Shown: one piece after another, positions 7,314 to 36,654 of the stretch | Layout: each line of letters begins with the position of its first letter | Position numbering within the stretch: position 1 is the stretch's first letter | NCBI GenBank assembly: GCA_039934355.1 | Contig: JBDTMI010000004.1 | Span: forward strand, 60,750-124,749 | DNA: 64,000 nt | Reading direction: 5' to 3' | Source: Gemmatimonadales bacterium | Lineage (GTDB): Bacteria > Gemmatimonadota > Gemmatimonadetes > Gemmatimonadales > GWC2-71-9 | Position numbers and translations under genes: made by a program | Notes under the pieces: generated by a model | The model's input: only the letters and a program-made list of their open reading frames with translations | Told to the model about the DNA's origin: nothing | Databases searched by the model: none

Positions 7314-9089
7314 TCAGCTGGTCCGTGCTGAGGACCCCCAGAGTTTCGGAACCAGCCGGAGCAGCCAGATGCCGCTGACGGTGAAGACACTGAGGAAGAC
7401 GAGCGCCTGCGGCGTCCGTCCGTACAGGAAGCTCCCGGTGCCGAAGAGTGCGGAGTAGACGAAAGCGATGCCGAGGGTCCAGCCGAGCAGGGCCTGCGGG
7501 AGGCTGTCGGGGGAGGGGCCGACGCCGGCTTCGGCCTGCACCGATCGCCAGCCAGGACCGGCGGGGCGAACCAGACGGTAGAAGGCGACCAGCCGGGAGC
7601 GTTCCGTTGGCTCGGTGAAGAACGCCGTGGTGATCCAGACGGTGGTCGTGATGGCGACGCTGAGGATGAGTGCGATCGCACCGTCGACCGGGTGGCCGCT
7701 TTTCGCCAGCACGGTAAAGCTGATCGCAAGCACGAAACTCGACAGCATCGCCGCGATCTCGCTCCAGGCGTTGACCCGCCACCAGAACCAGCGCAGCAGG
7801 TAGAGCAGGCCGGTGCCGGCACCGACTGACAGGAGCAGTTCGAACGCCTGACGGGCGCTGTCGAGCACCAGCGTGAATCCCGCCGCGACGACCATCAGCG
7901 CGGCCGTCACCAGTCGCCCCACCATGACATAGTGCCGCTCCTCTCTGCCGGGCTTCAGGAAGCGGCGATAGAAATCGTGCACCAGGTAGGAGGTGCCCCA
8001 GTTAAGATGGGTGCTGATGGTGGAGACGTAGGCCGCCAGCATCCCGGCGATCATCACGCCCAGGAAACCGGTGGGCAGGAACTTGAGCATGGCCGGATAC
8101 GCCATGTCGTGCCCGATCAGCTTCGGGTCGACGTAGGGGAAAGTCCTCGCGATGTCGCCGAGGTCCGGGAAGATGATGATCGAACAGAGGGCCACGATGA
8201 TCCAGGGCCAGCTGCGGATGGCGTAGTGGGCCACGTTGAAGAAAAGTGTTCCGGCCAGCGCGTCCCGTTCGCTCTTCGCGGCCAGCATCCGCTGCGCGAT
8301 ATAACTGCCGCCGCCGGGTTCCGCGCCGGGGTACCAGACCGACCACCATTGCACGGTGAGCGGCATGATCAGGACCGACACGGTGAGCCCCCAGTCGCTG
8401 AAGTCGGGCAGCAGGTTGAGGGTCTTCGGATCGGTCTTGGCAATCAGCCCGGCGAGCCCGCCGATCTCCGGCTGTCGCAGGCAGAAGACCGCGAGCGCAA
8501 TGGCACCGGTCATGGCGATGCCGAACTGGATGAAGTCGGTCACCAGCACGCCCCACAGCCCCGAGGTCGCCGCAAAGGCGATGTTGATCCCCGCGCAGAT
8601 CAGCAGCGTCTGACCGATCGGCCAGCCAAGCACCACATTCGCGATCTTGGCGGCGGCCAGGTTCACCGTCGCCATGATGGCGCAGTTGAAGAACAGCCCG
8701 AGGTAGAGCGCCCGAAACCCGCGGACTAGCGTCGCCGCCCGCCCGGAATACCGCACTTCGTAGAATTCGAGGTCGGTCATCACGCCACTGCGGCGCCACA
8801 AGCGGGCGTAGAAGAACACCGTCGCCATGCCGGTCAGCAGAAACGACCACCAGAGCCAGTTGTTGGCGACGCCCTTCTCGCGGATCAGGTTGGTGACAAG
8901 GTTCGGTGTGTCGGTACTGAACGTCGTCGCAACCATCGAGACGCCGATCAGCCACCACGGCGCGGCCCGGCCCGAGGTGAAGAACTCGGCGGTTGAGGAG
9001 CCGGCGCGGCGGGCGAGCAGGATGGCGGGAATGAAGGAGACGATGATGGACAGCACGACGATGGCCCAGTCGAGCGGCATCAGGTGCAT
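7314..9089 (-). CDS. Sodium:solute symporter (SSF) family transporter
   Basis: 591 aa polytopic membrane protein. N-terminus DWAIVVLSIIVSF...STAEFFTSGRAAPWWLIGVSMVATTFSTDTP is characteristic of the SSF family. Confidence 0.9.
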   Translation of the reverse strand: MHLMPLDWAIVVLSIIVSFIPAILLARRAGSSTAEFFTSGRAAPWWLIGVSMVATTFSTDTPNLVTNLIREKGVANNWLWWSFLLTGMATVFFYARLWRRSGVMTDLEFYEVRYSGRAATLVRGFRALYLGLFFNCAIMATVNLAAAKIANVVLGWPIGQTLLICAGINIAFAATSGLWGVLVTDFIQFGIAMTGAIALAVFCLRQPEIGGLAGLIAKTDPKTLNLLPDFSDWGLTVSVLIMPLTVQWWSVWYPGAEPGGGSYIAQRMLAAKSERDALAGTLFFNVAHYAIRSWPWIIVALCSIIIFPDLGDIARTFPYVDPKLIGHDMAYPAMLKFLPTGFLGVMIAGMLAAYVSTISTHLNWGTSYLVHDFYRRFLKPGREERHYVMVGRLVTAALMVVAAGFTLVLDSARQAFELLLSVGAGTGLLYLLRWFWWRVNAWSEIAAMLSSFVLAISFTVLAKSGHPVDGAIALILSVAITTTVWITTAFFTEPTERSRLVAFYRLVRPAGPGWRSVQAEAGVGPSPDSLPQALLGWTLGIAFVYSALFGTGSFLYGRTPQALVFLSVFTVSGIWLLRLVPKLWGSSARTS

Positions 9090-9261
9090 GGCAGAGCTCC
9101 CGAAGGGGTGGCCGTGCGGTGTGGTCTAGCGACTGAGCAGTGCGGGATGACGCGGCGCCGCGGGGGCGAGCGCATGGCACGCCGGGAAAGACAAAGGGAG
9201 TGTCCCAGGCACCCCGAAGCGACACTGGACATCGCTTAGCGCTGCTACCTCTCGGTCCTGA

Positions 9262-9374
9262 CGCGGTTCGCGCGCCGGCGACCTTCGGACCTGGGACGAG
9301 GGGAGTATAGCCCGCCCGCCCGGCCCGGAATAGGGGCAGCCACCGACCTCGGAGGGGCCGGTGCGCGCTCCGTC
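9262..9374 (+). ncRNA. ffs: Structured RNA candidate, possibly small SRP RNA (4.5S/ffs)
   Basis: A 14-bp closing helix (9265-9278 with 9358-9371; 12 pairs including one G-U, plus 2 mismatches) encloses GGCCCGGAAUAGGGGCAGCC, which resembles the SRP helix-8 motif GGUCCGGAAGGAAGCAGCC. It lies immediately upstream of dnaX, a position conserved for ffs in several phyla. The apical loop and arm lengths are atypical, so this is tentative. Confidence 0.4.
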
Positions 9375-9418
9375 AACCCGTCTAGCCCTCCAACCGCCGA
9401 GCCGACTAGCTTCCCGCC

Positions 9419-11083
9419 ATGGCCCTCGCCCTCGCCCGGAAATACCGCCCCCGCCGCTTCAGCGATCTGCTGGTGCAGGACCACGTGGCCAACGTGCTGC
9501 GCGGCGCCGTGGTGCGCAATCGGGTGGGACACGGGTACCTCCTGACCGGGCCGCGAGGCGTCGGCAAGACGACGGCGGCGCGCATCCTCGCCATGGCGCT
9601 CAACTGCGAACGCAAGGGTGTGGTGGCGCCGGCAGGGGAGCCGTGTGGGAGCTGCGACAGCTGCCAGCGGATCTGGACCGGTGTCGCCAACCTCGATGTG
9701 GTGGAGATCGACGCCGCCTCGAACCGCGGGGTCGACGATGCCCGCGACCTGCGCGAGCGGGCGATGTACGCCGCGTCGCAGGCCGGTCACCACAAGGTCT
9801 ACATCGTCGACGAAGCGCACATGCTGACCCGCGAGGCGTGGAACGCGCTGCTCAAAATTCTCGAAGAGCCGCCGCCGGGCGTGGTGTTCGTCTTCGCCAC
9901 CACGGAGCCGCAGAAGATCGCGCAGACCGCGGCACCGGTCCTGTCGCGCCTGCAGCGGTTCGACTTCCGTCGTATCGGCCCCGCGGCGATCCGGGACCGC
10001 CTCCGGGTCGTGCTGCACGAGGAGCAGATCGAGGCCGACGAAGACGCCCTCACGCTGATCGCCCGGCAGGCCGACGGCGGGATGCGCGATGCCCTGAGTG
10101 TGCTGGACCAGTGCCTGAGTTTCGGTGAGGGTCGTATCACCGCGGCGCGGGTCCGGGAAATCCTCGGCCTGGTGGATGACGAGATCTACACCGAGCTGCT
10201 CGCCATTCTGGCCGAGCGCCAGCCGGCCGGTGTCTTCACGCTGCTTGACCGACTGGACGAGGCAGGCGCGGATCTGATCGAGTTTTCCGGTGGCGTGGGC
10301 CAGATGCTTCGCGCGCTGTTGATGCTGCAGCTTGGGGCGACGCCCGAAGGGCTCACCGAGGCCATGCATCAGGCGCTCGCCGCTTTCCAGGACCGGCTCG
10401 CCGCCGGCGATCTGCTGCGGATGCTCAAACTGCTGGGGGAATCCGAGGCGACGATTCGCCGGAGCGCGACACCGCGCCTCGTCATCGAGACCCTGTTGCT
10501 GCGTTGGGTCCTCCTCGACCGGATGGTGGATCTGGCGGACCTGCTCGAGGGGACCAGTACTCCCCCATCCGCGGGGCCATCGCCCAGGACCACCGTAACG
10601 CCGGCACGGTCGAACCCCACGCCGCGCGCCACCGAGTCTCCGGCACATCCACCCGCCGAGTCGCCCGCCCGCCGCCCCGTGACCTCGATCGACTTCACGC
10701 TCGAGGCCCTGCGCGCGGCCTGGCCCGACCTGGTGCTCCTCGCTCGGGAGCAGAGCCGCTTCCTCGGGGAGGCGCTCAGCGCGGCGCGACCGGTGGCGGC
10801 AGCGCCACCCGCGCTGGCCCTTGAGGTACCGGATGGCAACCCGATGCACCTGGAATCGCTGGGTCGCCAGAAGGAGGCGGTGGAGCGGTTACTCGGACAG
10901 GCGGTCGGCGCTCCGGTGGTGCTGACCGTGACCGATCCCGGGGCGAAGAAGGAAGGCCCGTCTCCCCGCGGCCGACGACTGACCGAGGCGGAGACCCGCG
11001 CCGAACGGCTCAAGGTGCTCCGAACTCGTGATCCCGCCCTGGAGGCGGTGGCGGAGTCCCTGGACCTGGAAGTCATTGAATAG
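9419..11083 (+). CDS. dnaX: DNA polymerase III subunit gamma/tau
   Basis: 554 aa. Starts LARKYRPRRFSDLLVQDHV; Walker A GPRGVGKTT; Zn module CGSCDSCQ; YIVDEAHML box. Pro/Ala-rich linker and tau C-terminal region. Confidence 0.95.
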   Translation: MALALARKYRPRRFSDLLVQDHVANVLRGAVVRNRVGHGYLLTGPRGVGKTTAARILAMALNCERKGVVAPAGEPCGSCDSCQRIWTGVANLDVVEIDAASNRGVDDARDLRERAMYAASQAGHHKVYIVDEAHMLTREAWNALLKILEEPPPGVVFVFATTEPQKIAQTAAPVLSRLQRFDFRRIGPAAIRDRLRVVLHEEQIEADEDALTLIARQADGGMRDALSVLDQCLSFGEGRITAARVREILGLVDDEIYTELLAILAERQPAGVFTLLDRLDEAGADLIEFSGGVGQMLRALLMLQLGATPEGLTEAMHQALAAFQDRLAAGDLLRMLKLLGESEATIRRSATPRLVIETLLLRWVLLDRMVDLADLLEGTSTPPSAGPSPRTTVTPARSNPTPRATESPAHPPAESPARRPVTSIDFTLEALRAAWPDLVLLAREQSRFLGEALSAARPVAAAPPALALEVPDGNPMHLESLGRQKEAVERLLGQAVGAPVVLTVTDPGAKKEGPSPRGRRLTEAETRAERLKVLRTRDPALEAVAESLDLEVIE

Positions 11084-11160
11084 GGTCAGGCTTGCTTGCA
11101 TCCGACCCCACGGACCCCTAGTTTCTTCTTACTTTGCAGCGACTTAGCGATACTGAGCGT

Positions 11161-11469
11161 ATGGCAGATTGGCAGCAGCTCTATCAGTTGAGCCAGCAGA
11201 TGCAGGGGCGGCTTCACCAGCTCCAGCTCGATTTGGCCGACCACACCTATGACACGCAAGCCGGGGCCGGCATGGTCCGGGTGACGGTGGATGGGCAGGG
11301 AGTACTCCGGCGCCTGCACATCGATCCGGAATGCTTTGCGGGGCGGGATGCCGAGTTGCTGGCAGACCTGATCATCGGCGCGGTCGCCGAAGCGCAGCGA
11401 CGGGCCCACGAAGCGATGCAGCAGGAAGTTCGACGCGTGAGTCCCGCGACCCCGAACTTGCCGCTCTGA
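11161..11469 (+). CDS. ybaB: YbaB/EbfC family nucleoid-associated protein
   Basis: The ATG at 11161 gives 102 aa: MADWQQLYQLSQQMQGRL...AGMVRVTVDGQGVLRRLHIDPE...LADLIIGAVAEAQRRA. Conserved dnaX-ybaB-recR synteny. The ORF track's TTG at 11134 is an alternative start. Confidence 0.9.
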   Translation: MADWQQLYQLSQQMQGRLHQLQLDLADHTYDTQAGAGMVRVTVDGQGVLRRLHIDPECFAGRDAELLADLIIGAVAEAQRRAHEAMQQEVRRVSPATPNLPL

Positions 11470-11474
11470 AGATT

Positions 11475-12065
11475 GTGAGCGCAATCGAAGACCTGGTCAC
11501 CGAACTGGCCCGCTTGCCCGGCATTGGCCGGAAGACCGCCCAGCGACTGGCGTTCCACCTCGTGCAGCAACCCGGCGATCGCCTGACCCGGCTGGCCCGC
11601 GCGCTTGTCACCGTCGCAGAGCGGGTCCGGCCGTGTGATGAGTGCGGTCACCTCGCGGAGGGCGAGCGCTGCTCGATCTGTCTCGATCCGCGGCGTGATG
11701 CAGGACTCCTGTGTGTGGTGGAGGAGCCTGCTGCGGTCATGGTGCTGGAGCGCGCCGGCGAGTACCGCGGCCGCTATCATGTGCTGGGCGGTCGGATCGA
11801 TCCCCTGGGCGGCATTGGGCCGGAATCATTGCGGCTGGATCAACTCGTGGCCCGGGTCGATGCCGGCGGCGTGCGTGAGGTGATTCTGGCCACCAACCCC
11901 TCGATGGAAGGGGAGGTGACCGCCACCTACGTGCACCAGTTGCTCGTCGGCCGTGCGGTGAAAGTGACCCGGCTGGCCCGCGGGCTCCCCGTCGGAGGCG
12001 ATCTCGAATATGTCGACGGTGTGACGCTCGCCCTGGCGTTCACCTCCCGACAGGTGGTGGGCTGA
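11475..12065 (+). CDS. recR: Recombination protein RecR
   Basis: A GTG at 11475 in the frame of ORF 11331..12065 gives 196 aa. LARLPGIGRKTAQRLAFHL HhH motif, C4 zinc finger CDECGHL..CSIC, and Toprim segment VILATNPSMEGEVTA. Confidence 0.95.
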   Translation: MSAIEDLVTELARLPGIGRKTAQRLAFHLVQQPGDRLTRLARALVTVAERVRPCDECGHLAEGERCSICLDPRRDAGLLCVVEEPAAVMVLERAGEYRGRYHVLGGRIDPLGGIGPESLRLDQLVARVDAGGVREVILATNPSMEGEVTATYVHQLLVGRAVKVTRLARGLPVGGDLEYVDGVTLALAFTSRQVVG

Positions 12066-12347
12066 GTGCGGCGTCTGGCGGTGGTGTTCGGGGTCGCACT
12101 CGGGGCCGGGATCGGATGGACGCTGGCCCACGACCACATCGAGCGTCACCGGGAGAACCTGTTCAGTCCCCGTCCGTTCCGTCGCCTCGCCGCCCTGGGC
12201 GGGATCGATGCGGCGGGAGAACTCGAAAGTGTGCGTGTGCTGCACGATTACCTCCAGTGGGAGCGCCATCCGGTGCTCCGTCGCCGGGCCCGCGCGATCG
12301 TCCGCCGGCTTGAAGCGGCGCTGGGCTACACTCCACCGGGGACCTGA
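12066..12347 (+). CDS. Hypothetical small membrane-anchored protein
   Basis: 93 aa. GTG start directly abuts the recR stop, and its stop overlaps the mglB ATG by 1 nt. One N-terminal TM helix. G/C-ending codon bias consistent with coding. No family recognised. Confidence 0.5.
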   Translation: MRRLAVVFGVALGAGIGWTLAHDHIERHRENLFSPRPFRRLAALGGIDAAGELESVRVLHDYLQWERHPVLRRRARAIVRRLEAALGYTPPGT

Positions 12348-12838
12348 TGCCTGGGGCTTCCAGCTGGTCGTTCCGTGAAGAAGATTCCCAACGGATCACC
12401 GTGATTCTTTCGGCGTTCCTGCGGGAGTCCAACGCCCGCACGGCGATGATCGTGGACCGCGCCGGTCAGATGGTGTCGACCGTGGGCGAGGAGCCCACCT
12501 TCGATCCCACGGCGTTTGCCTCGCTCACCGCCGCCGATTTCAGTGCCAACGACCAGCTGGCGCGAATGATCGGCGAGCCGGAATTCGGCAGCCTTTTTCA
12601 TCAGGGCGAGAAGGAGTCGATGTACCTCGCCGATATCGCCCGGCGGGTGATCCTCGTCGTGCTGTTCGACAATCGCACGACCTTGGGCATGGTGAAGCTG
12701 CGGGTGCGGCAGACGGTGACGGACCTGCGCCATGTCTTCGAGGAGATGTTCACCCGGGAGCCGAGCGGCAAGCCGCCGGTGGAATCCGGGTTCATGGGTG
12801 AGGCGGAAGATGAAATTGACCGGCTGTTTGGCGCGTGA
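12347..12838 (+). CDS. mglB: Roadblock/LC7 domain protein, MglB-like GTPase-activating protein
   Basis: 163 aa. Close resemblance to Myxococcus MglB as remembered (VDRAGQMVS...ASLTAA...FHQGEKESMYL...VILVVLFDNRTTLGMVKLR). Sits directly upstream of mglA. Confidence 0.8.
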   Translation: MPGASSWSFREEDSQRITVILSAFLRESNARTAMIVDRAGQMVSTVGEEPTFDPTAFASLTAADFSANDQLARMIGEPEFGSLFHQGEKESMYLADIARRVILVVLFDNRTTLGMVKLRVRQTVTDLRHVFEEMFTREPSGKPPVESGFMGEAEDEIDRLFGA

Positions 12839-12854
12839 AGAGGAGTAATACCTG

Positions 12855-13535
12855 ATGTCGATGATCAATTACGCTTCGCGCGAGATCAACTGCAAACTGG
12901 TCTACTACGGCCCTGGGCTGGGCGGCAAGACGACCAATCTCGAATTCGTCTTCGCCAAGGTCGCCCCCAACTCGCGAGGCAAGCTGATCTCGCTCGCCAC
13001 CGAGACCGAGCGGACCCTGTTCTTCGATTTCCTGCCGGTGGATCTGGGCACGATCCGCGGCTTCAAGACTCGATTCCACCTCTACACCGTGCCGGGACAG
13101 GTGTACTACAACGCCTCGCGCAAGCTGATCCTCAAGGGGGTCGATGGCGTCGTGTTTGTCGCCGACAGCCAGATCGAGCGGATGGAGGCCAACATCGAGG
13201 CGATGCAGAACCTGTACGACAACATGGCCCAGCACGGCTACAACCTGACCACCATCCCGTTTGTCATCCAGTATAACAAGCGCGACCTGCCCAACGCGGC
13301 CACGATCCGGGAGCTGCAGGCGGCGCTGAATCCCGGCTGGGCGGTCGAGGATCCCGCCAAGCAGCGGGCGGTCCCCGATCCCTACCACGAGGGCGACTTC
13401 CTGGTCGAGCAGATCGACGGCCAGTGGATCGAGCGCGCGCCGTACTTCGAGGCGGTGGCGATGTCGGGCGATGGGGTCTTCGACACCCTCAAGGCGGTGA
13501 GCAAACAGGTGCTGAAGAGTCTCGGATCGACCTGA
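12855..13535 (+). CDS. mglA: Ras-like small GTPase MglA (gliding-motility/polarity GTPase family) with internal insertion
   Basis: 226 aa. [25 protein letters not shown] (P-loop), FHLYTVPGQ (MglA-type TxxGQ G3) and QYNKRDL (G4). Strong AGAGGAG Shine-Dalgarno 9 nt upstream. Confidence 0.9.
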
Positions 13536-14170
13536 TGTGGAACCTGCCGAACGTGCTCACCCTCGTTCGGATCTGCCTGACGCCGGTGATCGGGCTCCTG
13601 CCGTTCATCGAAGGGTACTGGCCCAAATTCATCTGCTTCCTGGTGTTCATCTTTGCCGCTGTCACCGATGTGGTCGACGGGTACCTCGCCCGGTCCCGCA
13701 ACCTGGTGACCGATCTTGGCAAACTCCTGGATCCACTCGCCGACAAGCTGCTGCTCTTCGCCACGATCATCCCGATCTACTGGATCTCCCGCACCCGCCA
13801 CGACCTCTACGATATCCCAGTCTGGGGCAGCATCCCGCTCTGGGTCTGCCTGCTGCTCATCGGCCGCGAGATCGCGATGACCCTGTTCCGGTTCTGGGCC
13901 AAGCACCGCGGGATTGTCATTCCCGCCGCCGGGGCCGGCAAGCTGAAGGCGACACTGCAGAACATCTATATCGGCGCCACCTTCCTCTGGTTCACCTTTC
14001 GCGACGCGCGCAAGCCGCTCGGCTGGGAACACAACCGGATGGCAGAGTACTGGAATCAGTTCCATGGCGGTGTGGTCGCCCTCACGCTGGCGTTGGCGAC
14101 GATTCTCACCGTCTACTCCTTTGTGGTCTACATCTACACCTATCGCCGCCTCTTTCTCGGTTCGCGCTGA
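13535..14170 (+). CDS. pgsA: CDP-diacylglycerol--glycerol-3-phosphate 3-phosphatidyltransferase (CDP-alcohol phosphatidyltransferase family)
   Basis: The ATG at 13535 overlaps the mglA TGA by 1 nt. 211 aa. [13 protein letters not shown] and the DVVDGYLAR...GKLLDPLADK CDP-alcohol transferase signature. Confidence 0.9.
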   Translation: MWNLPNVLTLVRICLTPVIGLLPFIEGYWPKFICFLVFIFAAVTDVVDGYLARSRNLVTDLGKLLDPLADKLLLFATIIPIYWISRTRHDLYDIPVWGSIPLWVCLLLIGREIAMTLFRFWAKHRGIVIPAAGAGKLKATLQNIYIGATFLWFTFRDARKPLGWEHNRMAEYWNQFHGGVVALTLALATILTVYSFVVYIYTYRRLFLGSR

Positions 14171-14206
14171 TCCACGGCGTCCCTTCCGCCCGACCGATCG
14201 CCCTCC

Positions 14207-15493
14207 GTGCCTGACATCGAACTGCTGACCATCGGAACCGAGCTGCTCCTTGGTCTCACGCTCGACACCAACAGCGCTGAACTCGGCCGGGCACTCGCCG
14301 GGGCCGGCTTCGGTGTCGTCCGACGCACCTCGGTGACCGATCACCCAGCCGCGATCGGGGAGGCGGCCCGCGCCGCACTCGGGCGCACGGGGCTGGTGGT
14401 CTGCACCGGCGGACTCGGCCCCACCGCCGATGACATCACCAAGCGGGTGATCGCCGACCTATTCGACATGCCGCTGGAGTTCCAGCCCGCGCTGTGGCAG
14501 GGACTGGTGGACCGTTTTTCCCGGTTCGGCCGGGTGCCCTCGGAGAAGAACCGCAGCCAGGCCGAAGTGCCCCGCGGGGCGACGGTGCTGCCCAATCGGT
14601 GGGGCACCGCCCCCGGGCTCTGGCTCGAAGGAAGCGTCGATGGTCTGACCGGCGATCCGCAGGTTGCCATTCTCCTGCCCGGCGTCCCCTCCGAGATGCG
14701 CGGCTTGCTGCACCATGAGGTGCTCCCCCGGCTCGCTCGACGCGCGGGGGATCATGTGGTGCGCTCCCGTACCGTGCGGACGACGGGCATTCCGGAATCG
14801 AGCCTCGCAGGACGATTGGGCGAAATCGAAGCCGAGCTCGCCCCACTCTCGCTCGCCTATCTGCCAGGGGTGGCGGGTGTCGACCTGCGACTCACCGCCT
14901 GGAGCCTGCCAGCCGCCGAGGCAGACGCGCGTCTCGCGGTGGGAATTCGACTTCTTGCGGAGCGGGCGGGGCGCTGGGCCTACGGGGAGGAGGACGCCGA
15001 TCTCGCCGAACTGGTCCTGGCCGCGGCCCGACGGAAGGGTTGGCGGCTCGTCGTCGCCGAGTCCTGCACCGGGGGTGGTGTCGGTGCGAGGCTGACGAAC
15101 ATCGCGGGGAGTTCGGACGTTTTTCTTGGCGGAATCATCGCGTATGACAACCAGGTGAAGGTCGAGCAGCTCGGCGTCGCTCCGGAGCTGATCGAACGAC
15201 ATGGGGCCGTGAGTGAAGCGGTCGCACGGGCGATGGCCGTGGGGGTCGCCCGGCTGCTTCGCGCCGAGGCCGCGGTCGCCGTCACCGGCATCGCCGGGCC
15301 GGGCGGTGGGAGCACGGAGAAGCCGGTGGGCCTGGTTTGCATCGGCATCGCCGTGGCCGGCAGTGGGGAGGCCCACTCCCATGTCTTTCCGGGCGACCGG
15401 GGCGAGATCCGAGGTCGTGCTGCGCAGACCGCGCTGTCCTACCTGCTGCAGCGACTGACGCCCACTCCAGCCGAGCTCGGCGCGTTGAAGTAG
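14207..15493 (+). CDS. cinA: Competence/damage-inducible protein CinA (MoCF-biosynthesis domain + nicotinamide-nucleotide amidase PncC domain)
   Basis: 428 aa. N-terminal ELLTIGTELLLG...DTNSAELG and GGLGPTADDIT. C-terminal AESCTGG motif of the PncC domain. Confidence 0.9.
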   Translation: MPDIELLTIGTELLLGLTLDTNSAELGRALAGAGFGVVRRTSVTDHPAAIGEAARAALGRTGLVVCTGGLGPTADDITKRVIADLFDMPLEFQPALWQGLVDRFSRFGRVPSEKNRSQAEVPRGATVLPNRWGTAPGLWLEGSVDGLTGDPQVAILLPGVPSEMRGLLHHEVLPRLARRAGDHVVRSRTVRTTGIPESSLAGRLGEIEAELAPLSLAYLPGVAGVDLRLTAWSLPAAEADARLAVGIRLLAERAGRWAYGEEDADLAELVLAAARRKGWRLVVAESCTGGGVGARLTNIAGSSDVFLGGIIAYDNQVKVEQLGVAPELIERHGAVSEAVARAMAVGVARLLRAEAAVAVTGIAGPGGGSTEKPVGLVCIGIAVAGSGEAHSHVFPGDRGEIRGRAAQTALSYLLQRLTPTPAELGALK

Positions 15494-15611
15494 TGAGCCG
15501 GACCACCCCGCCCGGGGCCGCGCCTCAGGCAGTCCGGTACCCCCGCCGATAGTATCCGGCAGCCACCCTCGCGGTTGGCGGCAAACCCGGTGAGCGGCAA
15601 AGGGATAGGGG

Positions 15612-18600
15612 ATGAGGCAAGCCAGCGCGAAGGAGTCTGGAACCACCACGACCTGCGATGCGGTCGTGGAGGCTTTCAACGCGCATGCGCATGAGATCCG
15701 GTGCCGCAGCGACCGGCTGTTCGCCCTGCTCCTGGTCATCCAGTGGCTCGTCCTTCTCTGGGTGGCGGCCTGGATTTTCCCCGGGACGCTTCCGGCGCAA
15801 CTCGGCATCGCCTCCTATCCGTTCTCCCTCGTCGCCATCGGCACCACGCTTTTCACGCTGCTCCCCGCCGCGTGGGTTCTTGCCTGTCCTGGTCGCCGCC
15901 ACAACGGGCACCTGATCGCGCTGGCCCAGGCACTGGTCGGTACCGCACTGATCCACTTCAGCGGTGGCCGGATCGAATCTCACTTCTACATCTTCGGCGC
16001 GCTCGCAGTGCTGGCGATGTACCGCGACTGGCGCCTCCTCCTCACGTTCACCGTGACGGTCGCCGTGGATCACGCCGTTCGCGGCACGTACTATCCCGCG
16101 TCCGTCTTCGGGGAGGTGCACGTTAACTCGCTCCGCTGGCTCGAACATCCCGGGTGGGTTCTGTTTGAAGGCCTGTTCCTGGTCATCGGGATCGTGCAGA
16201 GCCGGCGGGCAATGTGGGAGACTGCGGCCAGACGGGTCGAGACGGAGACCGCCGCCAGGACCCTGGATCGCCGGATCCGGGAGCGCACAGCGGACCTCGA
16301 CGCGAGCGTCGCTCAGCACCAGGCCATCCTCGAAGCCATGGACCAGGTCCAGATCGAGGCATCACCGAATATGCGCTGGATCAGGCTGTCACCGGCCTGG
16401 GAGCGGATCACCGGGTATTCGGTCGAGGAGAGCATCGGTCGCTCGATCCTCGAGTTCATTCACCCCGACGACCGTGAGACTTCCGTCCAGGATGCCCGCC
16501 GGGCGACGGATGCTGGCGGAGTATCCGTTCGCTCCAGCACCAAGCGCTACCTCCGGAGAGACGGCCAGGTGCGCTGGATTGAAGCTGATCTGGTCGCCCT
16601 GCCGGATGGACGCTTTACCGGGCTGATGCGGGATGTGACGATTCGAAGGGAGGCCGAGGACGCGATCACATTGCAGAGCGAGTTCGAGCGGGGGGTCCTC
16701 GACGCGATGCACGCCCAGGTGGCCGTCCTCGCGGCGGATGGGCGGATCCGGGCGGTGAACCGTGCCTGGCGGGAGTTTGCCGTTGTGAACGCTGCCCACG
16801 ATCAGGCTTGCCCGGCGGAGATGGCGATCGGCTCGAACTATCTCGCCGTATGCCGGCTCGCCACGGGGGAGCGGAGTGACGAGGCTGCTCCGGCGCTGGC
16901 GGGCATCTCCGCGGTCCTCGAGGGCAGATTGTCCAGGTTCGAGCTCGACTACCCCTGCGACTCTCCATCGGAGAAGCGCTGGTTTACGCTGAACGTCACC
17001 CCATTCGGGAAGGCGATCGGCGGGGCGGTGATCGCCCACATCGATATCACCGAGCGCCGGAAAGCGGCAGAGACGCTTCGGCAGGCCCACGAACAACTCG
17101 CGCTCCATCTCGAACACTCTCCCCTCGCTGTCGTCGCGTGGGATGCGGACCACCGGGTCACCCAGTGGACCGGGAACGCAGAATCGATGTTCGGCTGGAA
17201 GGCGGAGGAAGTCGTCGGCAAGCGGCCGGGGGAGTGGGCGTGGATTGTTCCCGGGGAAGAGGAGCGGATTGCCGCGGAGTTGGCACTCCTGGCATCGGGT
17301 CGCGCCGATCAGGTCATTCTGGAGACGCGGAATTTCACGAGCACCGGGGAGATCCGGCACATTCTGTCGTGGAATTCCGTGTCGCGGGACCGCCTCGGCC
17401 GACCGGTCTCCACCTTCTCCCTCATGCAGGACGTGACCGAGATGCGTCGCGCGGAGGCCGCGCTGCAAGAGACCCAGGAACGGTTTGCACTGGCGATACA
17501 AGGGACTTCGGACGGCATCTGGGATTGGGATATCGCCGCCGGTACCGTCTGGCGCTCCCCGCGTCTGCTCCAGATTCTGGGTTTGGACACCGCGACGCTT
17601 TCCAACGCGGCAGAGGCGATCCTGGATCTGGTGCACCCGGAGGATCGGGAGTGGCTGGAGGCCGCGTTGGAGGATCACCTGCGGTGTGGTGTGCCGTTCA
17701 GGATGGAGTATCGCGTGCGGCATGGGGATGGCACGTGGCGCTGGCTCCAGGACCGCGGTCAGGCCGTCTGGTCCGCGGACGGTACCCCGACCCGCTTCGC
17801 GGGCTCCAGCAGTGACGTGACGGATCGGCGTGAGGCGCAGGAGGCGCTGCAGCGCAGCGTCCAGGAACTGGAGGAGGCCCGCGACCGCGCCGAGGCCGGC
17901 ACCCGGGCCAAATCCGAGTTTCTGGCGATGATGAGCCACGAAATCCGGACCCCGATGAATGGCGTCCTTGGCATGACCAGCCTCCTGCTCGACACGGTGC
18001 TTGACGAGGAGCAGCGGGATTGCGCCGAGACGATCAAGACCTCGGGAGATGCGCTCATGTCCATCATCAACGACATTCTGGATTTCTCGAAGATCGAAGC
18101 GGGCAAGATGACGATCGAGTCGGTCGACTGCGACGTGCGGACCGCCGTTGAAGACGTCGTTGACTTGCTCTCGCAACGCGCGGCGGAGAAGTCCATCGGC
18201 CTGACAATTGTCTACCCGGCCAGTGCGCCCGGCCGCCTGATCACCGATCCGGGTCGGCTGCGCCAGATTCTGGTCAACCTGGTGGGTAATGCCATCAAGT
18301 TTACCGAGCAGGGGAGCGTCACCATCGAGGCGAGTACCTCCATCGAGGGAGACCAGCTGCGGCTGACGGTGCGCGACACCGGTATCGGCATCGCCGCTGA
18401 GGCGCTCACCCGCCTGTTCCAGCAGTTCGAGCAGGCCGATGCGACGACGACGCGACGGTACGGTGGGACCGGCCTCGGCCTCACCATCTCGCGACGGCTG
18501 GTGGAGCTCCTGGGCGGATCGCTGGAGGTGGAGAGCATTCCAGGACGGGGAAGTGCCTTCACGGTGACACTGCCCGCACAGCGCGTCTCGCCGGTGACGA

Positions 18601-19073
18601 CGGGCGCGGATTCTGCGCCGAGCGCCGTGCCCGTCACGATGGTCGAGTCGTCCGGGCCCGGTAGCGCCATGCCCCGCGTCCTGCTGGTCGAGGACAACGC
18701 CGTCATGCAAAAGGTCGGATTTCGAATGCTGGACAAGCTCGGCTGTCGCGTCGATCTCGCGGCGAACGGGGTCGAGGCGGTCGAGATGTCGGCCCGGTTC
18801 ACCTATGATCTCGTGTTCATGGATTGCATGATGCCTGAGCTGGATGGCTACGAGGCGACGGTCCGGATTCGGCAACGCGAGGCCGGAGGGCGACGGCTCC
18901 GCATCGTCGCCATGACGGCGAGCGCCATGGCGAGTGATGCCGAACGTTGCCTCACCGCAGGGATGGATGATTACATCTCGAAACCGGTTGCGATGGCGAC
19001 CCTGGCGGAGCTCCTGCGCAAGTGGGTCTCGTCTCCGCGCACCGCACCGGCTCCAGACACTCTGCCAATCTGA
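15612..19073 (+). CDS. Hybrid sensor histidine kinase/response regulator with N-terminal 6-TM domain and multiple PAS domains
   Basis: 1153 aa. About 6 TM helices, then at least 4 PAS-like repeats, H-box [14 protein letters not shown], HATPase N/G boxes ([23 protein letters not shown]), and a receiver domain (VLLVEDN...[14 protein letters not shown]...SKP). Confidence 0.9.
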
Positions 19074-19090
19074 CCAGCCTCCGGGGTACG

Positions 19091-19125
19091 CCCGTTGCTA
19101 TTATCTTTGGCCTACCTGCAACGGG
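19091..19125 (+). promoter_or_regulatory. Inverted repeat CCCGTTGC-N19-GCAACGGG enclosing TATTAT, upstream of grpE
   Basis: Perfect 8-bp arms at 19091-19098 and 19118-19125, with an AT-rich TATTAT at 19099-19104 in the loop. Lies between the kinase stop (19073) and the grpE start (19138). Function (operator, promoter or terminator) is not established. Confidence 0.3.
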
Positions 19126-19137
19126 ACCAAAGCCCAA

Positions 19138-19737
19138 GTGGTGGAAGATCAAGACGTTCGCAACAATGCCGGCGGCGAATCAGACGCCGCGGACTCGATT
19201 GACAATGCCGGGACGGCTGAGCAGCCATTGGCCGCGGCCGAGATCGGCGGGCTGCCGATGGAGCCGGGATCCGAGGCAATCCGCCGGTTGGAAAATGAGG
19301 TCGCCGAAGCCCGGGACCGATACCTGAGGCTCGCCGCCGAGTACGACAATTTCCGCAAGCGGGTGGCACGCGAACGCGAGGAGCTGACCGCCCGGGCGCA
19401 GGCCGCGCTGGCCGTCCGGTTGCTCGATGTTCTGGATGATCTCGATCGGGTCGTGTCGGGAACTGGGCTCGCCGCCGGGCCCGAAGTGATGCAGCAGGCG
19501 CTCGTCCTCATCGATCGGAAGATGCGCAAGGAGCTTGAAGCGGCCGGGCTCGAACGAATCGAGCCCGCGGGTCAGCCGTTCGATCCCAGCCTGCACGAGG
19601 CTGTCTCCGTGCTGGTCCCGCCCGCGCCCGAGGCCGATCACACCGTCAGCGCCACCTTTCAGGCCGGGTACCGGTTCAAGGGCTCGCTGATCCGGCCCGC
19701 CCGGGTCCAGGTGTATTCGTCCGAAGGGCATGCCTGA
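19138..19737 (+). CDS. grpE: Nucleotide exchange factor GrpE
   Basis: A GTG at 19138 in the frame of ORF 18934..19737 gives 199 aa. RDRYLRLAAEYDNFRKRVARE, LDVLDDLDR and GYRFKGSLIRPARVQV motifs. The exact start is uncertain (19138, 19141, or the later ATG). Confidence 0.9.
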   Translation: MVEDQDVRNNAGGESDAADSIDNAGTAEQPLAAAEIGGLPMEPGSEAIRRLENEVAEARDRYLRLAAEYDNFRKRVAREREELTARAQAALAVRLLDVLDDLDRVVSGTGLAAGPEVMQQALVLIDRKMRKELEAAGLERIEPAGQPFDPSLHEAVSVLVPPAPEADHTVSATFQAGYRFKGSLIRPARVQVYSSEGHA

Positions 19738-19739
19738 CC

Positions 19740-20834
19740 GTGGCGAAGGACTTCTACCAGGTCCTTGGCGTTCCGGATAGCGCGACACCTGCGGAAATCA
19801 AGAAAGCTTACCGCCGGCTCGCGAAACAGCACCACCCTGACGCCAATCCCAACAATCCCTCCGCCTCCGATCGCTTCAAGGAGATTTCGGAGGCGCATTC
19901 GGTGCTGGCTGACGCCGACAAGCGCAAGCAATACGACCAGATGCGCCGACTCGGCGCGTTCGATCCCGCGGCCACCCGGCGCGGGCAGGGCGCCGGGTCC
20001 CGCGCCGGTTCCCCGTCCGCGGGCCCGGATGGCGCCGAGTTTTCCGACCTCGGCGGGTTCGGGCTGGGTGACATCTTCTCGTCGATATTCGGGCGCGGAC
20101 GGCAGGAGGCGGAGGAGTCCCAGGCTCTCGAAACCGTGGTGGAGATCCCGTTCCGGATTGCCGCGTTAGGTGGCAAGGTGTCGGTGCGGATTCCGGTGAC
20201 GGAATCGTGCCACGTCTGCTCCGGCAGCGGTGCCGCGCCCGGGGCGAAGGTCACGACCTGTTCCGAGTGCAACGGCCGGGGGACGGTGACGTTCGGCCAG
20301 GGCGGCTTCGCGGTCAGTCGGCCATGCCCGAAATGCCGGGGCCGGGGCAGGACCCCCTCGACACCCTGTCCCAACTGCCACGGTGCCGGGGAAGTGCGGG
20401 TGGAGCGGGAAGTGGCGATCACGGTGCCGCTCGCGACGGAGACCGGGACCAAGGTTCGGATGCGGGGGCAGGGACAGGCCTCCCGGCCCGGCGAGCCGCC
20501 GGGAGATCTGGTGGTCACGTTCCAGGTGCAGCCGGACCGCTTCTTCCGCCGCGAGGGGTTGGACCTCCACTGCGACGTGCCCATCAATCTGGCGCAGGCG
20601 GCGCTCGGGACGCGCCTGCGCGTGCGTACGCTCGATGGCAAGAAGGTGGTGCTGCGGATCCCGGCCGGAACTCAGCCGGGTCGTCGGTTCCGAATCAAGG
20701 GGATGGGATTGGCCAAGGGTGAGCGGAAGGGCGACCAGCTGGTGCAGGTCCAGGTGCAGATCCCGGAGGCACTCTCACCGGAGCAGGAAGAGCTGCTGAA
20801 GAAGTTCGCCGAATCGACCGGGCTGCCGTTCTAG
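19740..20834 (+). CDS. dnaJ: Molecular chaperone DnaJ (type I: J domain, G/F region, four CxxCxGxG zinc motifs)
   Basis: 364 aa. DFYQVLGVP...YRRLAKQHHPD J domain. CHVCSGSG, CSECNGRG, CPKCRGRG and CPNCHGAG. Starts 2 nt after the grpE stop. Confidence 0.9.
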   Translation: MAKDFYQVLGVPDSATPAEIKKAYRRLAKQHHPDANPNNPSASDRFKEISEAHSVLADADKRKQYDQMRRLGAFDPAATRRGQGAGSRAGSPSAGPDGAEFSDLGGFGLGDIFSSIFGRGRQEAEESQALETVVEIPFRIAALGGKVSVRIPVTESCHVCSGSGAAPGAKVTTCSECNGRGTVTFGQGGFAVSRPCPKCRGRGRTPSTPCPNCHGAGEVRVEREVAITVPLATETGTKVRMRGQGQASRPGEPPGDLVVTFQVQPDRFFRREGLDLHCDVPINLAQAALGTRLRVRTLDGKKVVLRIPAGTQPGRRFRIKGMGLAKGERKGDQLVQVQVQIPEALSPEQEELLKKFAESTGLPF

Positions 20835-20864
20835 CCGGTCGCCAGACAGCTGACAGCTGCCAGC

Positions 20865-23048
20865 TCAGACCTGGCGCCCCACTGCCGGGTATTCCCCCGT
20901 CGCCCGGCCCGTCTCCCGATAACTCTCCACCAGCAGCCGATGAGTCGCCAGCTCGGTGTCATCCGACGGCGGGTGCCGCTGGGTGTAATGACCATGGGCG
21001 TCCAACTCCCACGCCTGGCGATTGTCCTGCCACATGAGCCCGAGAATTTCCCGGATCGACTGCCGATGGACCGGATCTTCGATCGGGGCGACCGCCTCGA
21101 TCCGCCGGTCAAGGTTGCGCGGCATCCAGTCCGCGGAGCCGATGTAGACCTCTTCCGCCCCGCCGTTCAGGAAATAGAAGGCGCGGGAGTGCTCGAGGAA
21201 TCGACCGATGATGCTGATCACCCGGATGTGTTCGCTGACGCCGGGGAGACCCGGGCGGAGGCAGCAGATCCCGCGGACGATGAGGTCGATGCGCACGCCG
21301 GCCTGACTGGCCTCGTACAGTGCGCGGATGATGGGCGGGTCCACCAGCGCATTCATCTTGGCGATGATCCGTGCCGGTCGACCGGCACGGGCGTTGGCCG
21401 CTTCGCGCAGGATGAGGGCGATGAACCGTTCCCGCATCCCCCGCGGCGCCACGATCAGCTTGCGATACTCCGCCGGTGCCCCGAACCCGGTGAGGACGTT
21501 GAACAGATCGGTCAGGTCCGCGCCGAGATCGGGGCTGGTGGTGAACAGGCCGAAATCGGTATACAGGCGCGCGGTGCGCGGATGATAGTTGCCGGTGCCG
21601 AGGTGGACATAGCGGCGCATGGTGTCGCCCTCGCGGCGCACCACCAGCATGACCTTGGTGTGGGTCTTGAGTCCCGCGACGCCGTAGCTCACATGGGCGC
21701 CCACATCTTCCAGCCGCTGGGCCCAGCGGATGTTGTTCTCCTCGTCGAATCGCGCCTGCAATTCGATGAGCACGGCGACCTGCTTTCCCCGTTCGGCCGC
21801 GTGCGCCAGCAACCGGGCGATGCTCGAGTCACCACCGGTCCGATACAGCGTCAGCTTGATCGCGAGCACGTCGGGATCATCGACCGCGGTCTGGATGAAC
21901 CGCTCGACCGAACTGGTGAAGCTTTCATAGGGGTGATGCACCAGGACGTCGCCCTCGCGGATCACGTCGAACATGTTGCGTCCGCCGGCCAGCCGTGAAG
22001 GCGTCACGGGATAGTGCGGCGGGTCTTTCAGCACCGGCAGGTCCATGGCGCCGGTGAGGCTCAGCAGGTCGGCGGTATCGAGGAGGCCAGGGACTTCATA
22101 AAGATCGTCCGGTCCCAGCGGGGCAGCCAGCGCGGCCTGCGCCGCATTGAATTCCGCCAGCAGCACCTCCCGGATCGATGCCGGGAGATCCGGGGTCACT
22201 TCCAGCCGCACCACGGAGCCGAACCGGCGGTTGCGCACCTCCGCCTGGATCGTGCTCAGGAGATCCTCGGCCTCGTCGTGGTCCACTTCGAAGTCGGTGT
22301 TGCGCGTGATGCGGAAGGCATGGCATCCGAGGATTTCGACACCGGGGAACAGCGTTTCGATGTTGGCGGTGACGACCTGTTCGAGCGGAACGTACCGGGT
22401 AGGTCCGCCATCGGTCCGCGGTCCCTGGTCGACCGAGACCCAGCGGGGCAGGATCTTGGGCACCTTCACCCGGGCGAACCGCTCTTCGCCGTCCATGTCG
22501 CGGAGCCGGACCGCGAGCGAAAGGCTGAGGTTGGAGATGTACGGAAAAGGATGCGCGGGATCGACGGCGAGCGGAGTGAGGACCGGAAAAACATTGTCCC
22601 GGAAGTACTGGTCGATGTGCGCCCGCTCCGGGCCGGTCAGGTCGCCGACATCCAGCACCGCGACTCCATCGAGTCGCAGCGCCGGCAGAATCTCATCATG
22701 CAGGGAACGGGCGTGGCTCCGGACCATCTCGCGCACGCAGACGGCGATCTGGCGCAACTGCTCATCGGGTGTCAGGCCATCGGGAGTCCGTTCGACATAG
22801 CCCGCGGCCAGCTGATCCTTGAGCCCCGCCACCCTGATCTGGAAGAACTCGTCCAGGTTCGAGCTGAAGATCCCCAGGAACTTGAGGCGCTCGAGCAGGG
22901 GCGTGCGCTGATCCTGGGCTTCGTGCAGCACCCGCCGGTTGAACTCCAGCCAGGACAGTTCGCGGTTGACGTACAGCGCGGGCAGCGAGAGATCGTGGAC
23001 CGGCGCCGGGGCGGGGGGGAGCACGGCCGGAGGAGCGAGATCGGTCAT
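20865..23048 (-). CDS. ppk1: Polyphosphate kinase 1
   Basis: YVNRELSWLEFNRRVLHEA...RLKFLGIFSSNLDEFF N-terminus, HTKVMLVVRRE and HxK phospholipase-D-like motifs. I prefer the ATG at 23048 (727 aa); the ORF track extends to 23099. Confidence 0.95.
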   Translation of the reverse strand: MTDLAPPAVLPPAPAPVHDLSLPALYVNRELSWLEFNRRVLHEAQDQRTPLLERLKFLGIFSSNLDEFFQIRVAGLKDQLAAGYVERTPDGLTPDEQLRQIAVCVREMVRSHARSLHDEILPALRLDGVAVLDVGDLTGPERAHIDQYFRDNVFPVLTPLAVDPAHPFPYISNLSLSLAVRLRDMDGEERFARVKVPKILPRWVSVDQGPRTDGGPTRYVPLEQVVTANIETLFPGVEILGCHAFRITRNTDFEVDHDEAEDLLSTIQAEVRNRRFGSVVRLEVTPDLPASIREVLLAEFNAAQAALAAPLGPDDLYEVPGLLDTADLLSLTGAMDLPVLKDPPHYPVTPSRLAGGRNMFDVIREGDVLVHHPYESFTSSVERFIQTAVDDPDVLAIKLTLYRTGGDSSIARLLAHAAERGKQVAVLIELQARFDEENNIRWAQRLEDVGAHVSYGVAGLKTHTKVMLVVRREGDTMRRYVHLGTGNYHPRTARLYTDFGLFTTSPDLGADLTDLFNVLTGFGAPAEYRKLIVAPRGMRERFIALILREAANARAGRPARIIAKMNALVDPPIIRALYEASQAGVRIDLIVRGICCLRPGLPGVSEHIRVISIIGRFLEHSRAFYFLNGGAEEVYIGSADWMPRNLDRRIEAVAPIEDPVHRQSIREILGLMWQDNRQAWELDAHGHYTQRHPPSDDTELATHRLLVESYRETGRATGEYPAVGRQV

Positions 23049-29571: not shown

Positions 29572-30810
29572 CTATTCGTGCCTCAACGCCTCCACCGGGT
29601 CCATCGCGGCGGCTCGATTCGCCGGGATCAGGCCAAACGTCAGGCCGATCAGGACGCTCACCAGCGTCGCGAGGACGGCGCTCCAGAGCGGGACACCCGA
29701 CTGGAGGCCCAGCACCACCTTGAGCAGTTGGCCTGCGCCGAGTCCCACCAGGATGCCGATCAGGCCCCCGATCAGGGTGAGGGTAGCGGCCTCCACCAGG
29801 AACTGCCAGAGGATTTCCCGATTGGTCGCGCCGAGCGCCTTGCGAAGCCCGATTTCGCGGGTGCGGTCCGTGACCGACACCATCATGATCGCCATGACGC
29901 CGATCCCCCCGACCAGCAGGGCGACGCTCGAGAGCGCCACCATCACGGCGAAGAACGCCGTGGTCAGGCTGCTGATGGTATCGAGGATCTGGTCCTGGGT
30001 GATGATGTCAAAGGTGTTGGGGAGGCCCGGCCGCAGGCGTCGCACCTTCCGCAACGCGGCGATGGTGAGGTCGGTGGCGACCGGAACCGGAATCTCAGGC
30101 CAGGCTTTGACAGAAAGGAACAGGCCGTTGGTCTCGTCGTAGCGGTAGTTGTACTTGGCGGTGCGAAAAGGAATGATGGCCCCGGTCTGCTGACCCGGTG
30201 GCTCGAAGATATTCTCGGGGCGCTGATAGATCCCGATCACGGTCAGGGCCACGCCACCGATCCGGATGCGCTTGCCCAGCGGATCGATCCGGCCGAACAA
30301 CCGTTCCGCCGACTCCTCCTCCACCACGGCGACCGGCTCCCCCGTCAGTTCGGAGACGGCGAAGAATCGCCCCCGGAGGAGGGTACCGCCCAGGATCTCC
30401 ATGTAGTGCTCGTCCGCGCCATAGACCGAGACGGTCTGCGTCGAGGCGTCCTGGTACTCCATCTTGACGAACAGCTGAACCCAGATTCCCGCGTACTGGA
30501 TCTCAGGCACCCGTCGGACGGCCGCGGCATCGCTTTCCTGAATCACGGGGCGGATCCGGACTTCGTACGGCAAGTTGTCCGGATTGAGCGGGGTCTGGGA
30601 AAAGAATCGCATGACATAGAACGCGGTGGGGCCGGCGGTGCTCATCGCGTTGAAGATCTGGGCCCGGATACCTTCGACGATCGACGCCATGGCCATCACG
30701 GTGGACACGCCGATGACGACACCCAGGATGGTGAGCGCGGAGCGGAGTTTGTTGGCCCGCAGGGAGTCCAGCGCGATCGCGACGCCTTCGTCGATATTGC
30801 GGAGGATCAT
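29572..30810 (-). CDS. ABC transporter permease, MacB/FtsX family (type B paralogue, copy 2)
   Basis: 412 aa. N-terminal TM (ALDSLRANKLRSALTILGVVIGV), large periplasmic domain, C-terminal FtsX 3-TM module with ERTREIGLRKALGA and DPVEALRHE. Confidence 0.9.
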   Translation of the reverse strand: MILRNIDEGVAIALDSLRANKLRSALTILGVVIGVSTVMAMASIVEGIRAQIFNAMSTAGPTAFYVMRFFSQTPLNPDNLPYEVRIRPVIQESDAAAVRRVPEIQYAGIWVQLFVKMEYQDASTQTVSVYGADEHYMEILGGTLLRGRFFAVSELTGEPVAVVEEESAERLFGRIDPLGKRIRIGGVALTVIGIYQRPENIFEPPGQQTGAIIPFRTAKYNYRYDETNGLFLSVKAWPEIPVPVATDLTIAALRKVRRLRPGLPNTFDIITQDQILDTISSLTTAFFAVMVALSSVALLVGGIGVMAIMMVSVTDRTREIGLRKALGATNREILWQFLVEAATLTLIGGLIGILVGLGAGQLLKVVLGLQSGVPLWSAVLATLVSVLIGLTFGLIPANRAAAMDPVEALRHE

Positions 30811-32051: not shown

Positions 32052-32095
32052 GGGGGAAAGATAGCTGGAACGGAGTGGACGGTAGAAAGGGGAGC

Positions 32096-32173
32096 GACGG
32101 CAGGGGCGGTAGGGACGGTAGAGGAACGATACCGTCCTTACCGTCTATTAGCGTCCCTGCCGCCCTTGCCGTC
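32096..32173. repeat. Long imperfect palindrome built from GACGG(T/C)A(G/A)GG units, between permease pairs
   Basis: Positions 32096-32117 pair with 32152-32173 (22 positions: 20 Watson-Crick plus 2 G-T). A further copy of the unit lies just upstream of the left arm and two more, in reverse orientation, lie inside the 34-nt loop. The right arm includes the stop codon of the 32173..33414 gene. Confidence 0.7.
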
Positions 32174-33414: not shown

Positions 33415-33420
33415 GGGGAC

Positions 33421-34662: not shown

Positions 34663-34663
34663 C

Positions 34664-36636: not shown

Positions 36637-36654
36637 GGTCTCTTCCTCTGTTGG

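Follow-up and report, generated by a model that had tools for sequence, protein, structure and literature searches.

The 64,000-nt window analyzed here, from the metagenome-assembled genome (MAG) of a Gemmatimonadales soil bacterium (GCA_039934355.1, contig JBDTMI010000004.1, positions 60,750 to 124,749), contains an mglB-mglA gene pair encoding a polarity GTPase and its Roadblock partner, and the GTPase carries a 35-residue insertion in place of the three-residue loop that precedes strand beta6 in Myxococcus xanthus MglA. The insertion is characteristic of one bacterial lineage, shows a conserved sequence motif and is predicted to fold. We give an even chance to the reading that it forms a docking surface, specific to the lineage, on the G-domain side that points away from the switch regions. 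Docking is favored over a modification of nucleotide binding because the base-binding motifs and the lysines of the pocket for the MglB C-terminal helix are unchanged.

An orthodox MglA/MglB pair

The mglA gene (12855-13535, + strand; G+C content at third codon positions 0.90) encodes a 226-aa Group-1 MglA GTPase. It is separated by a 16-nt spacer with a GAGGAG Shine-Dalgarno sequence from mglB (12347-12838, + strand), which encodes the Roadblock/LC7 GTPase-activating protein (GAP) of MglA (Pfam Robl_LC7, 4.3e-11) and exactly matches the NCBI protein MEO8634180.1. In a phmmer search of PDB, the GTPase matched M. xanthus MglA with an E-value of 4.9e-85. Its residues 1-159 align without gaps to residues 1-159 of the M. 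xanthus protein (119/159 identical, 75%), and its residues 195-223 align to residues 163-191 (18/29, 62%), giving 73% identity over 188 aligned positions. The ungapped alignment of residues 1-159, together with model strands 3-5 and 45-47, demonstrates the presence of the bacterial-type insertion between G1 and G2 that adds extra strands to the domain. The protein scores above the Pfam cut-off for Arf, and the Foldseek match to MglA (E 2.9e-28) places it among Ras-like G domains.

All expected motifs were found: GPGLGGKT at residue 19, R53-T54, TVPGQ at residues 78-82, NKRD at residue 141, and AVA at residue 200. The R53-T54 pair aligns with R53-T54 of M. xanthus MglA, that is, with the intrinsic arginine finger beside the G2 threonine, and is invariant in relatives. 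The Group-1 criteria, including TVPGQ for DxxGQ, were defined previously (Wuichet and Sogaard-Andersen 2015, PMC4316618). The preliminary description of this DNA, made from the letters alone, had proposed an MglB-like roadblock protein upstream of an MglA with these hallmarks (TVPGQ for DxxGQ, NKRD), and the Pfam domains, the phmmer alignments and the motif positions bear it out. By these sequence criteria, MglA and MglB form a true Group-1 module, the known polarity GTPase switch.

Residues 10-162 of MglB align with M. xanthus MglB (6izw_B) with an E-value of 1.3e-33. The protein ends in an acidic helix, GEAEDEIDRLFGA (12794-12835, + strand), which by alignment is the counterpart of the M. 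xanthus C-terminal helix MSDDDIDNLF (EAEDEIDRLF against SDDDIDNLF). In Myxococcus, this helix contacts K181 and K185 of MglA and occupies a pocket to which alpha5, beta2 and the beta2-beta3 loop contribute (Baranwal et al. 2019, PMC6785124). The equivalent lysines of alpha5, K213 and K217, show no variation among the Gemmatimonadales proteins. Since the acidic helix is kept, the lysines are invariant and the motifs are present, the canonical switch and GAP machinery is predicted to be intact.

Position and reality of the insertion

The insertion comprises residues 160-194 of MglA (13332-13436, + strand) and appears in the PDB alignment as a gap, with 35 residues facing three (HRN) in M. xanthus MglA. 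The two proteins thus differ in length by 31 residues, 226 versus 195 aa. The preliminary description had postulated an insertion of about this net size after the NKxD strand and before G5. The insertion is real and its location was right, but the coordinates then given, nt 13326-13425, lay about 10 nt too far upstream. An assembly or sequencing artefact was ruled out as its cause, because the insertion is present in all of the 80 best species-representative loci and in all 120 best database homologs.

Distribution among MglA proteins

The loop length in other MglA proteins was measured using an exhaustive HMMER search of 1.84 billion representative sequences, which returned 6425 hits. The linker from G4 to beta6/alpha5 was measured in the best 150, of which 140 were scoreable; the other 10 are truncated or frameshifted. 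The alpha4-beta6 linker is 2-4 residues long in 135 of the 140 and 35-36 residues long in the remaining five (P0125, three fragments, and the divergent P0132), all of which carry the same insertion as the window MglA. Because so large a majority has the short linker, the insertion is lineage-specific, as had been proposed, and not a common variable loop, the outcome that the preliminary description itself had named as its refutation.

Two candidates for other large insertions at this loop were rejected. Representatives of 300-890 aa have G5 near residue 167, and their extra length is a C-terminal tail. P0128 (210 aa, from a 742-bp contig) diverges after LNP and never regains G5; it was treated as a frameshifted or chimeric fragment rather than as a second type of insertion. 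The tailed proteins form a group of their own: 126 of the best 150 representatives (within P0136-P0274) combine a normal MglA domain with a Pro/Ala/Glu-rich C-terminal tail to a total length of 300-890 aa, the tail ending in either a basic amphipathic motif (..KKRGFFKRLFG) or a conserved element (EITVPLxLxPEDLExGVVLRL).

The proteins with the insertion are numerous and closely related. The 120 best database homologs are 223-226 aa long and 88-99% identical to the window MglA, and those with names belong to Gemmatimonadales or Gemmatimonadota; the 50% identity cluster of P0125 has 526 members. A scan of one genome per GTDB species yielded 573 relatives, and in the best 80 loci the insertion could be aligned without exception; 76 of these loci carry Gemmatimonad* names (Gemmatimonadales and Gemmatimonadaceae MAGs). 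A search with the insertion alone (52-aa query) retrieved just four short MglA fragments; its word index is ill-suited to short queries, and the result is silent on the spread of the element.

The insertion is also present in a small divergent clade, P0132 and P0291, in which MglA is 59-66% identical to the window protein. P0291 corresponds to locus L081 (GCA_040394885.1, JBEBRK010000004.1, 7700-8672), with the gene order dnaX-ybaB-recR-small ORF-mglA-pgsA-cinA-grpE-dnaJ (ORF, open reading frame). Between the small ORF, a homolog of the 93-codon gene described below, and mglA, this locus has no mglB, yet the insertion in MglA is kept. The presence of the insertion in a divergent clade with the same synteny argues that it predates Gemmatimonadales, and its retention in L081 that it does not depend on an adjacent mglB; by these comparisons we take both statements to hold.

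Lengths of 186-202 aa predominate among the Group-1 MglA proteins of other phyla in the 2015 catalog, which also lists a 225-aa Group-1 MglA, GAU_1115, in Gemmatimonas aurantiaca T-27 with the arrangement MglB>MglA> (PMC4316618). Judged by its length and gene arrangement, not by its sequence, GAU_1115 is almost certainly the cultured-strain ortholog with the same insertion. The catalog gives GAU_1115 by length, and the sole insertion described in the main text is the older one, between G1 and G2 (PMC4316618). A second Group-1 MglA of G. aurantiaca, GAU_1409 (229 aa), is flanked by PATAN-domain genes (Table S2 of PMC4316618). No description of the MglA insertion was found in the searchable literature, and the literature on Gemmatimonas, budding and motility contained nothing useful. 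The insertion-bearing MglA is already in databases and catalogued by length; it represents a known protein in a form found throughout the lineage, and any role for the insertion is a proposal.

Conservation of the insertion

In 74 aligned sequences the insertion is 35-36 residues long and follows the motif NPGW-x-[VI]-x-[DE]-P-x-+-Q-+-x-x-PDP-x-H-x-G-E-x-L-V-x(4-5)-G-x-W-[IV]-E-R. Conserved residues are concentrated where the insertion begins and at the base of a predicted hairpin, the tip of which is the most variable part and contains a one-residue indel. The ratio of nonsynonymous to synonymous substitution rates (dN/dS), calculated by the method of Nei and Gojobori with synonymous sites close to saturation, is about 0.30 for the insertion versus about 0.11 for the core. 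These ratios point to clear purifying selection on the insertion.

These data bear on the possibility that the element is a tolerated structural decoration that became entrenched and is kept for folding or stability, without a partner or regulatory function of its own. Its rate of evolution is about three times that of the core, as a decoration's might be, and no partner or correlated gene was found, the presence or absence of mglB and of the small upstream gene not tracking the insertion. On the other hand, the length is fixed at 35-36 residues and the motif is strict in 81/81 loci, including the lineage with MglA only 59-66% identical; a dN/dS of 0.3 still means purifying selection; and the conserved charged residues D166, D175, H178, E181, E193 and R194 exceed what folding would be expected to need. 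We therefore regard a pure decoration as unlikely.

Predicted fold and position on the G domain

An AlphaFold2 model of MglA built with 74 more diverse sequences has a mean pLDDT (per-residue confidence) of 86.9 and a pTM (predicted template-modeling score) of 0.87, the pLDDT being 92-95 over residues 151-200. A prediction with a shallow alignment of 45 near-identical sequences had a mean pLDDT of 50.8 and was unusable, although the hairpin was predicted there too. DSSP assigned alpha4 to residues 151-158, bridges to 162-163 and 173-174, a turn to 167-169, a hairpin to 182-187/190-193, beta6 to 197-201 and alpha5 to 208-225. The hairpin (13398-13433, + strand) thus directly precedes beta6. In comparisons by Foldseek, the model superimposes on M. 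xanthus MglA with a TM-score of 0.93-0.94 when normalised by the target and 0.79-0.80 when normalised by the query. Among the Foldseek matches no PDB chain covers the inserted module, and a sequence search of PDB with the insertion alone gave no match up to an E-value of 10. According to the model, the insertion is probably a folded, small beta-hairpin module.

A hairpin predicted with high confidence beside the edge strand beta6 could extend the sheet and serve as a self-association surface, with MglA dimers or oligomers forming by strand pairing. The contacts made by the alpha4-alpha5 lobe of Ras offer a comparison, and MglA-GDP of Thermus thermophilus was crystallised in tetrameric arrangements, according to PDB titles. 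Homotypic contacts are nevertheless disfavored by the net charge of the insertion, -5 in the window MglA and -3.6 on average over relatives, and the adjacent conserved hydrophobic residues L183-V184 and W191-I192 speak for intramolecular packing of both hairpin faces. We consider self-association improbable.

The preliminary description had suggested that an insertion beside the base-binding loop could change nucleotide exchange or create a new partner surface. In the former scheme the insertion would alter how MglA binds, exchanges or hydrolyses nucleotide, acting directly on the neighboring G5 loop or allosterically via beta6. Its end lies just five residues before the AVA motif of G5, a beta-meander arrangement could, by the topology of the model, bring the tip of the hairpin level with G5, and allosteric control of MglA from a distal pocket has a precedent (PMC6785124). 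However, G4 (NKRD), G5 (AVA) and their flanks are as in insertion-free MglA, and the insertion enters beta6 in the AlphaFold2 model at the end opposite the G5 loop. The hairpin tip is the part that varies most and carries the indel. Mutual information in 324 unique sequences (effective number about 53) weakly linked the insertion to core positions 126-134 (the alpha3-beta5 loop), 150-157 (alpha4) and 215-224 (C-terminal alpha5), all outside the G motifs. An effect on the base-binding loop or on nucleotide exchange accordingly finds weak or no support, and we rate nucleotide modulation in either form as quite unlikely, if somewhat less so than self-association.

A docking surface as the favored role

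The docking reading can be put as the following sequence of events. The starting point would be an orthodox Group-1 switch, in which MglA supplies the intrinsic arginine finger R53 and the catalytic Q82 and the Roadblock GAP MglB docks via K213/K217. In an ancestor shared by Gemmatimonadales and at least one more-divergent lineage in which the gene order is kept, the three-residue alpha4-beta6 loop would have been replaced by a 35-residue acidic segment. This segment would fold into a beta-rich module of two short bridges, one helical turn and the hairpin leading into beta6, and so add to the G domain a protein-docking surface distant from the switch regions. A polar landmark, effector or anchor may bind there largely independently of the nucleotide state, while neither the core GTPase cycle nor its control by MglB would change. 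The insertion probably lies on the face opposite the nucleotide; we infer this spatial position in the same way as the docking function.

Several observations weigh against docking. The insertion is less conserved than the core, the mean frequency of the top residue being 0.73 versus 0.91. The covariation signal, although it falls in no G motif, is weak and confounded by phylogeny. Pairing of the hairpin with beta6 in a meander would let the tip lie near the G5 loop, and no binding partner of the insertion was identified. The retention of the insertion in L081, with no adjacent mglB, speaks against MglB-dependent roles only.

No other bacterial small GTPase has been studied as well as MglA, which also ranks among the most strongly conserved; its alpha4-beta6 loop has about three residues in nearly all close relatives. 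A folded 35-residue module kept across a phylum-level lineage points to a binding surface absent from the Myxococcus and Thermus models. It would provide a handle on MglA function in Gemmatimonadota, an abundant but poorly studied soil phylum with a cultured representative whose ortholog has 225 aa. The insertion resolves no long-standing question and the protein has already been catalogued, so that we regard the value of the finding as moderate.

A small membrane protein gene upstream of mglB

The 93-codon gene orf93 (12066-12347, + strand; product MEO8634179.1, hypothetical protein, an exact match) starts with a GTG that abuts the recR stop codon (0 nt), and its TGA overlaps the mglB ATG by one base. 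Homologs lie between recR and mglB in 59 of the 70 Gemmatimonadales loci that hold both genes, and additionally in L081. In the 11 loci where orf93 is missing there is no room for it, the gap between recR and mglB being 18-152 nt. Members of the family combine a conserved hydrophobic (transmembrane) helix at the N terminus with a C-terminal part rich in Arg, HR-x-DLFSPRPLRRLAALG ... VRLLRDYLAWER-P-LRRRA; the net charge is +5 in the window protein and +7.3 on average over relatives. Profile searches gave no significant match in Pfam or PDB. A single family member matches HEAT_2 at an E-value of 0.024, so that its HEAT-like look is a lead only. By its conservation pattern, orf93 is a real gene and its predicted product a small single-pass membrane protein.

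In five loci of at least three lineages (L006; L042; L032, L035 and L043), orf93 and mglB form one uninterrupted reading frame, which predicts a membrane-anchored MglB of about 258 aa. Four of the fusion products have no exact match in the protein collection, and other start codons may have been called there. A single frame of this Rosetta-stone type hints that orf93 and MglB act together, with orf93 possibly serving as membrane anchor. The occasional fusion points to a membrane-anchored GAP, in agreement with recent evidence that lipid interfaces are bound by M. xanthus MglB, which brings MglA to them (PMC13408092).

One specific partner can be imagined: the acidic insertion of MglA (-5) might dock onto the basic cytoplasmic part of orf93 (+5), giving a membrane-tethered module of MglA, MglB and anchor. 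We consider this a long shot, less probable than the alternatives weighed above. If it were true, the switch would be localised independently of the nucleotide state, unlike the recruitment by RomR-RomX in Myxococcus, and the adjacency of pgsA could tie the module to anionic-lipid domains at the cell poles.

Gene array and genomic context

The mgl genes belong to a closely packed array at 9419-15493, with all genes on the + strand, in a window of about 67% G+C. The array begins with dnaX (9419-11083), an ORF for the tau/gamma subunit of DNA polymerase III that tblastn also detected upstream in most loci with enough upstream sequence; the dnaX homolog of L081 has the DNA_pol3 Pfam domains. After a 50-nt gap follows the gene of the YbaB/EbfC nucleoid-associated protein (11134-11469; YbaB_DNA_bd, 8.5e-23), and then recR (11475-12065; RecR_HhH, ZnF, Toprim_4 and RecR_C). 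The mechanical start of the recR ORF, 11331, lies inside ybaB, and the RecR domains begin only at ORF residue 52. The start is most likely the GTG at 11475, 5 nt past the ybaB stop codon, which would give a RecR of 196 aa, similar to the 195-aa RecR of L081. Downstream of orf93, mglB and mglA, the array continues with a gene for a PgsA-type CDP-alcohol phosphatidyltransferase (13535-14170; CDP-OH_P_transf, 5.5e-36), the ATG of which overlaps the mglA TGA by one base, and ends after a 36-nt gap with cinA (14207-15493; CinA, MoCF_biosynth and CinA_KH), encoding a competence/damage-inducible protein.

The order dnaX-ybaB-recR-(orf93)-mglB-mglA-pgsA-cinA is kept in essentially all loci with sufficient flanking sequence. 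The pgsA gene directly follows mglA in 79 of the 80 loci, the remaining one (L050) stopping just past mglA, and mglB is present in all 75 Gemmatimonadales loci having upstream sequence. MglA is the most conserved product of the array, with 80-94% identity against 35-91% for its neighbors. The ORF coordinates reproduce the tight junctions reported for this DNA earlier (0 nt for recR/orf93, one-base overlaps for orf93/mglB and mglA/pgsA). As for the proposal that these genes are translationally chained, the gene order is indeed conserved across relatives, but such junctions are not general: mglA and pgsA overlap in some loci (L005, L065) and lie more than 100 nt apart at the other extreme. A scan of 9000-20900 found sigma-70-type promoters and terminators in numbers not above the shuffled expectation, and it provides no evidence on transcription units.

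No genes for RomR, RomX, Frz, MglC, type IV pili or Glt/Agl were found within the 64-kb window, the only part of the genome that the search covered. Type IV pilus genes are reported to be widespread in Gemmatimonadota and to occur in genomes from all environments except marine (PMC10581226), which makes a role of MglA in pilus polarity plausible in this phylum.

Beyond cinA, the window encodes a 1153-aa hybrid histidine kinase (15612-19073, + strand; several PAS domains, HisKA, HATPase_c and a receiver) ahead of the grpE/dnaJ region. In L081, grpE and dnaJ follow cinA directly, unlike in the window with its intervening kinase gene. Further downstream, at 29572-38223 (- strand), four tandem paralogous genes for MacB/FtsX-type permeases are followed by those for an ABC ATPase, an HlyD-type adaptor and an outer-membrane efflux protein, that is, an unusually multiplied MacAB-TolC-like export locus. 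A 1345-aa histidine kinase is encoded at 38977-43014 (+ strand); its first approximately 1100 residues have no Pfam match at an E-value of 1e-4 or lower.

Comparison with known systems

Comparison with the characterized MglA proteins of M. xanthus (5YMX, 6IZW, 6H17) and T. thermophilus (3T12) revealed the same Group-1 motifs, predicted fold, adjacent Roadblock MglB and alpha5 lysines. The window system differs from them in three respects: (i) a structured 35-residue insertion stands in for the three-residue alpha4-beta6 loop, (ii) the genes lie within a housekeeping array (dnaX-ybaB-recR ... pgsA-cinA) and not in a stand-alone mglBA operon, and (iii) their neighborhood lacks genes for RomR, RomX, Frz and Glt. 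GAU_1115 of G. aurantiaca, from the same phylum, shares the MglB>MglA> order and has a similar protein length, 225 aa.

Additions to Group-1-like G domains are also found in M. xanthus SofG and in the long-tailed MglA-like proteins. Their additions, however, extend the N or C terminus beyond the G domain, and the alpha4-beta6 loop is normal, with G5 near residue 167.

Two analogies come from other GTPases. The Rho insert of eukaryotic Rho-family GTPases is a clade-specific helix, about 13 residues long, that sits in the beta5-alpha4 loop; it offers effectors an additional surface and leaves nucleotide binding largely unaffected. The MglA element resembles it in being clade-specific and located between G4 and G5; it differs in its length of 35 residues, its beta-rich structure and its position in the alpha4-beta6 loop, and the two are not homologous. 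Translational GTPases of the EF-G type carry the G' subdomain, a folded insertion of about 90 residues between G4 and G5 that serves as a docking site. The MglA module is likewise a folded insertion between these motifs, but it belongs to a different class of GTPases and is unrelated in sequence.

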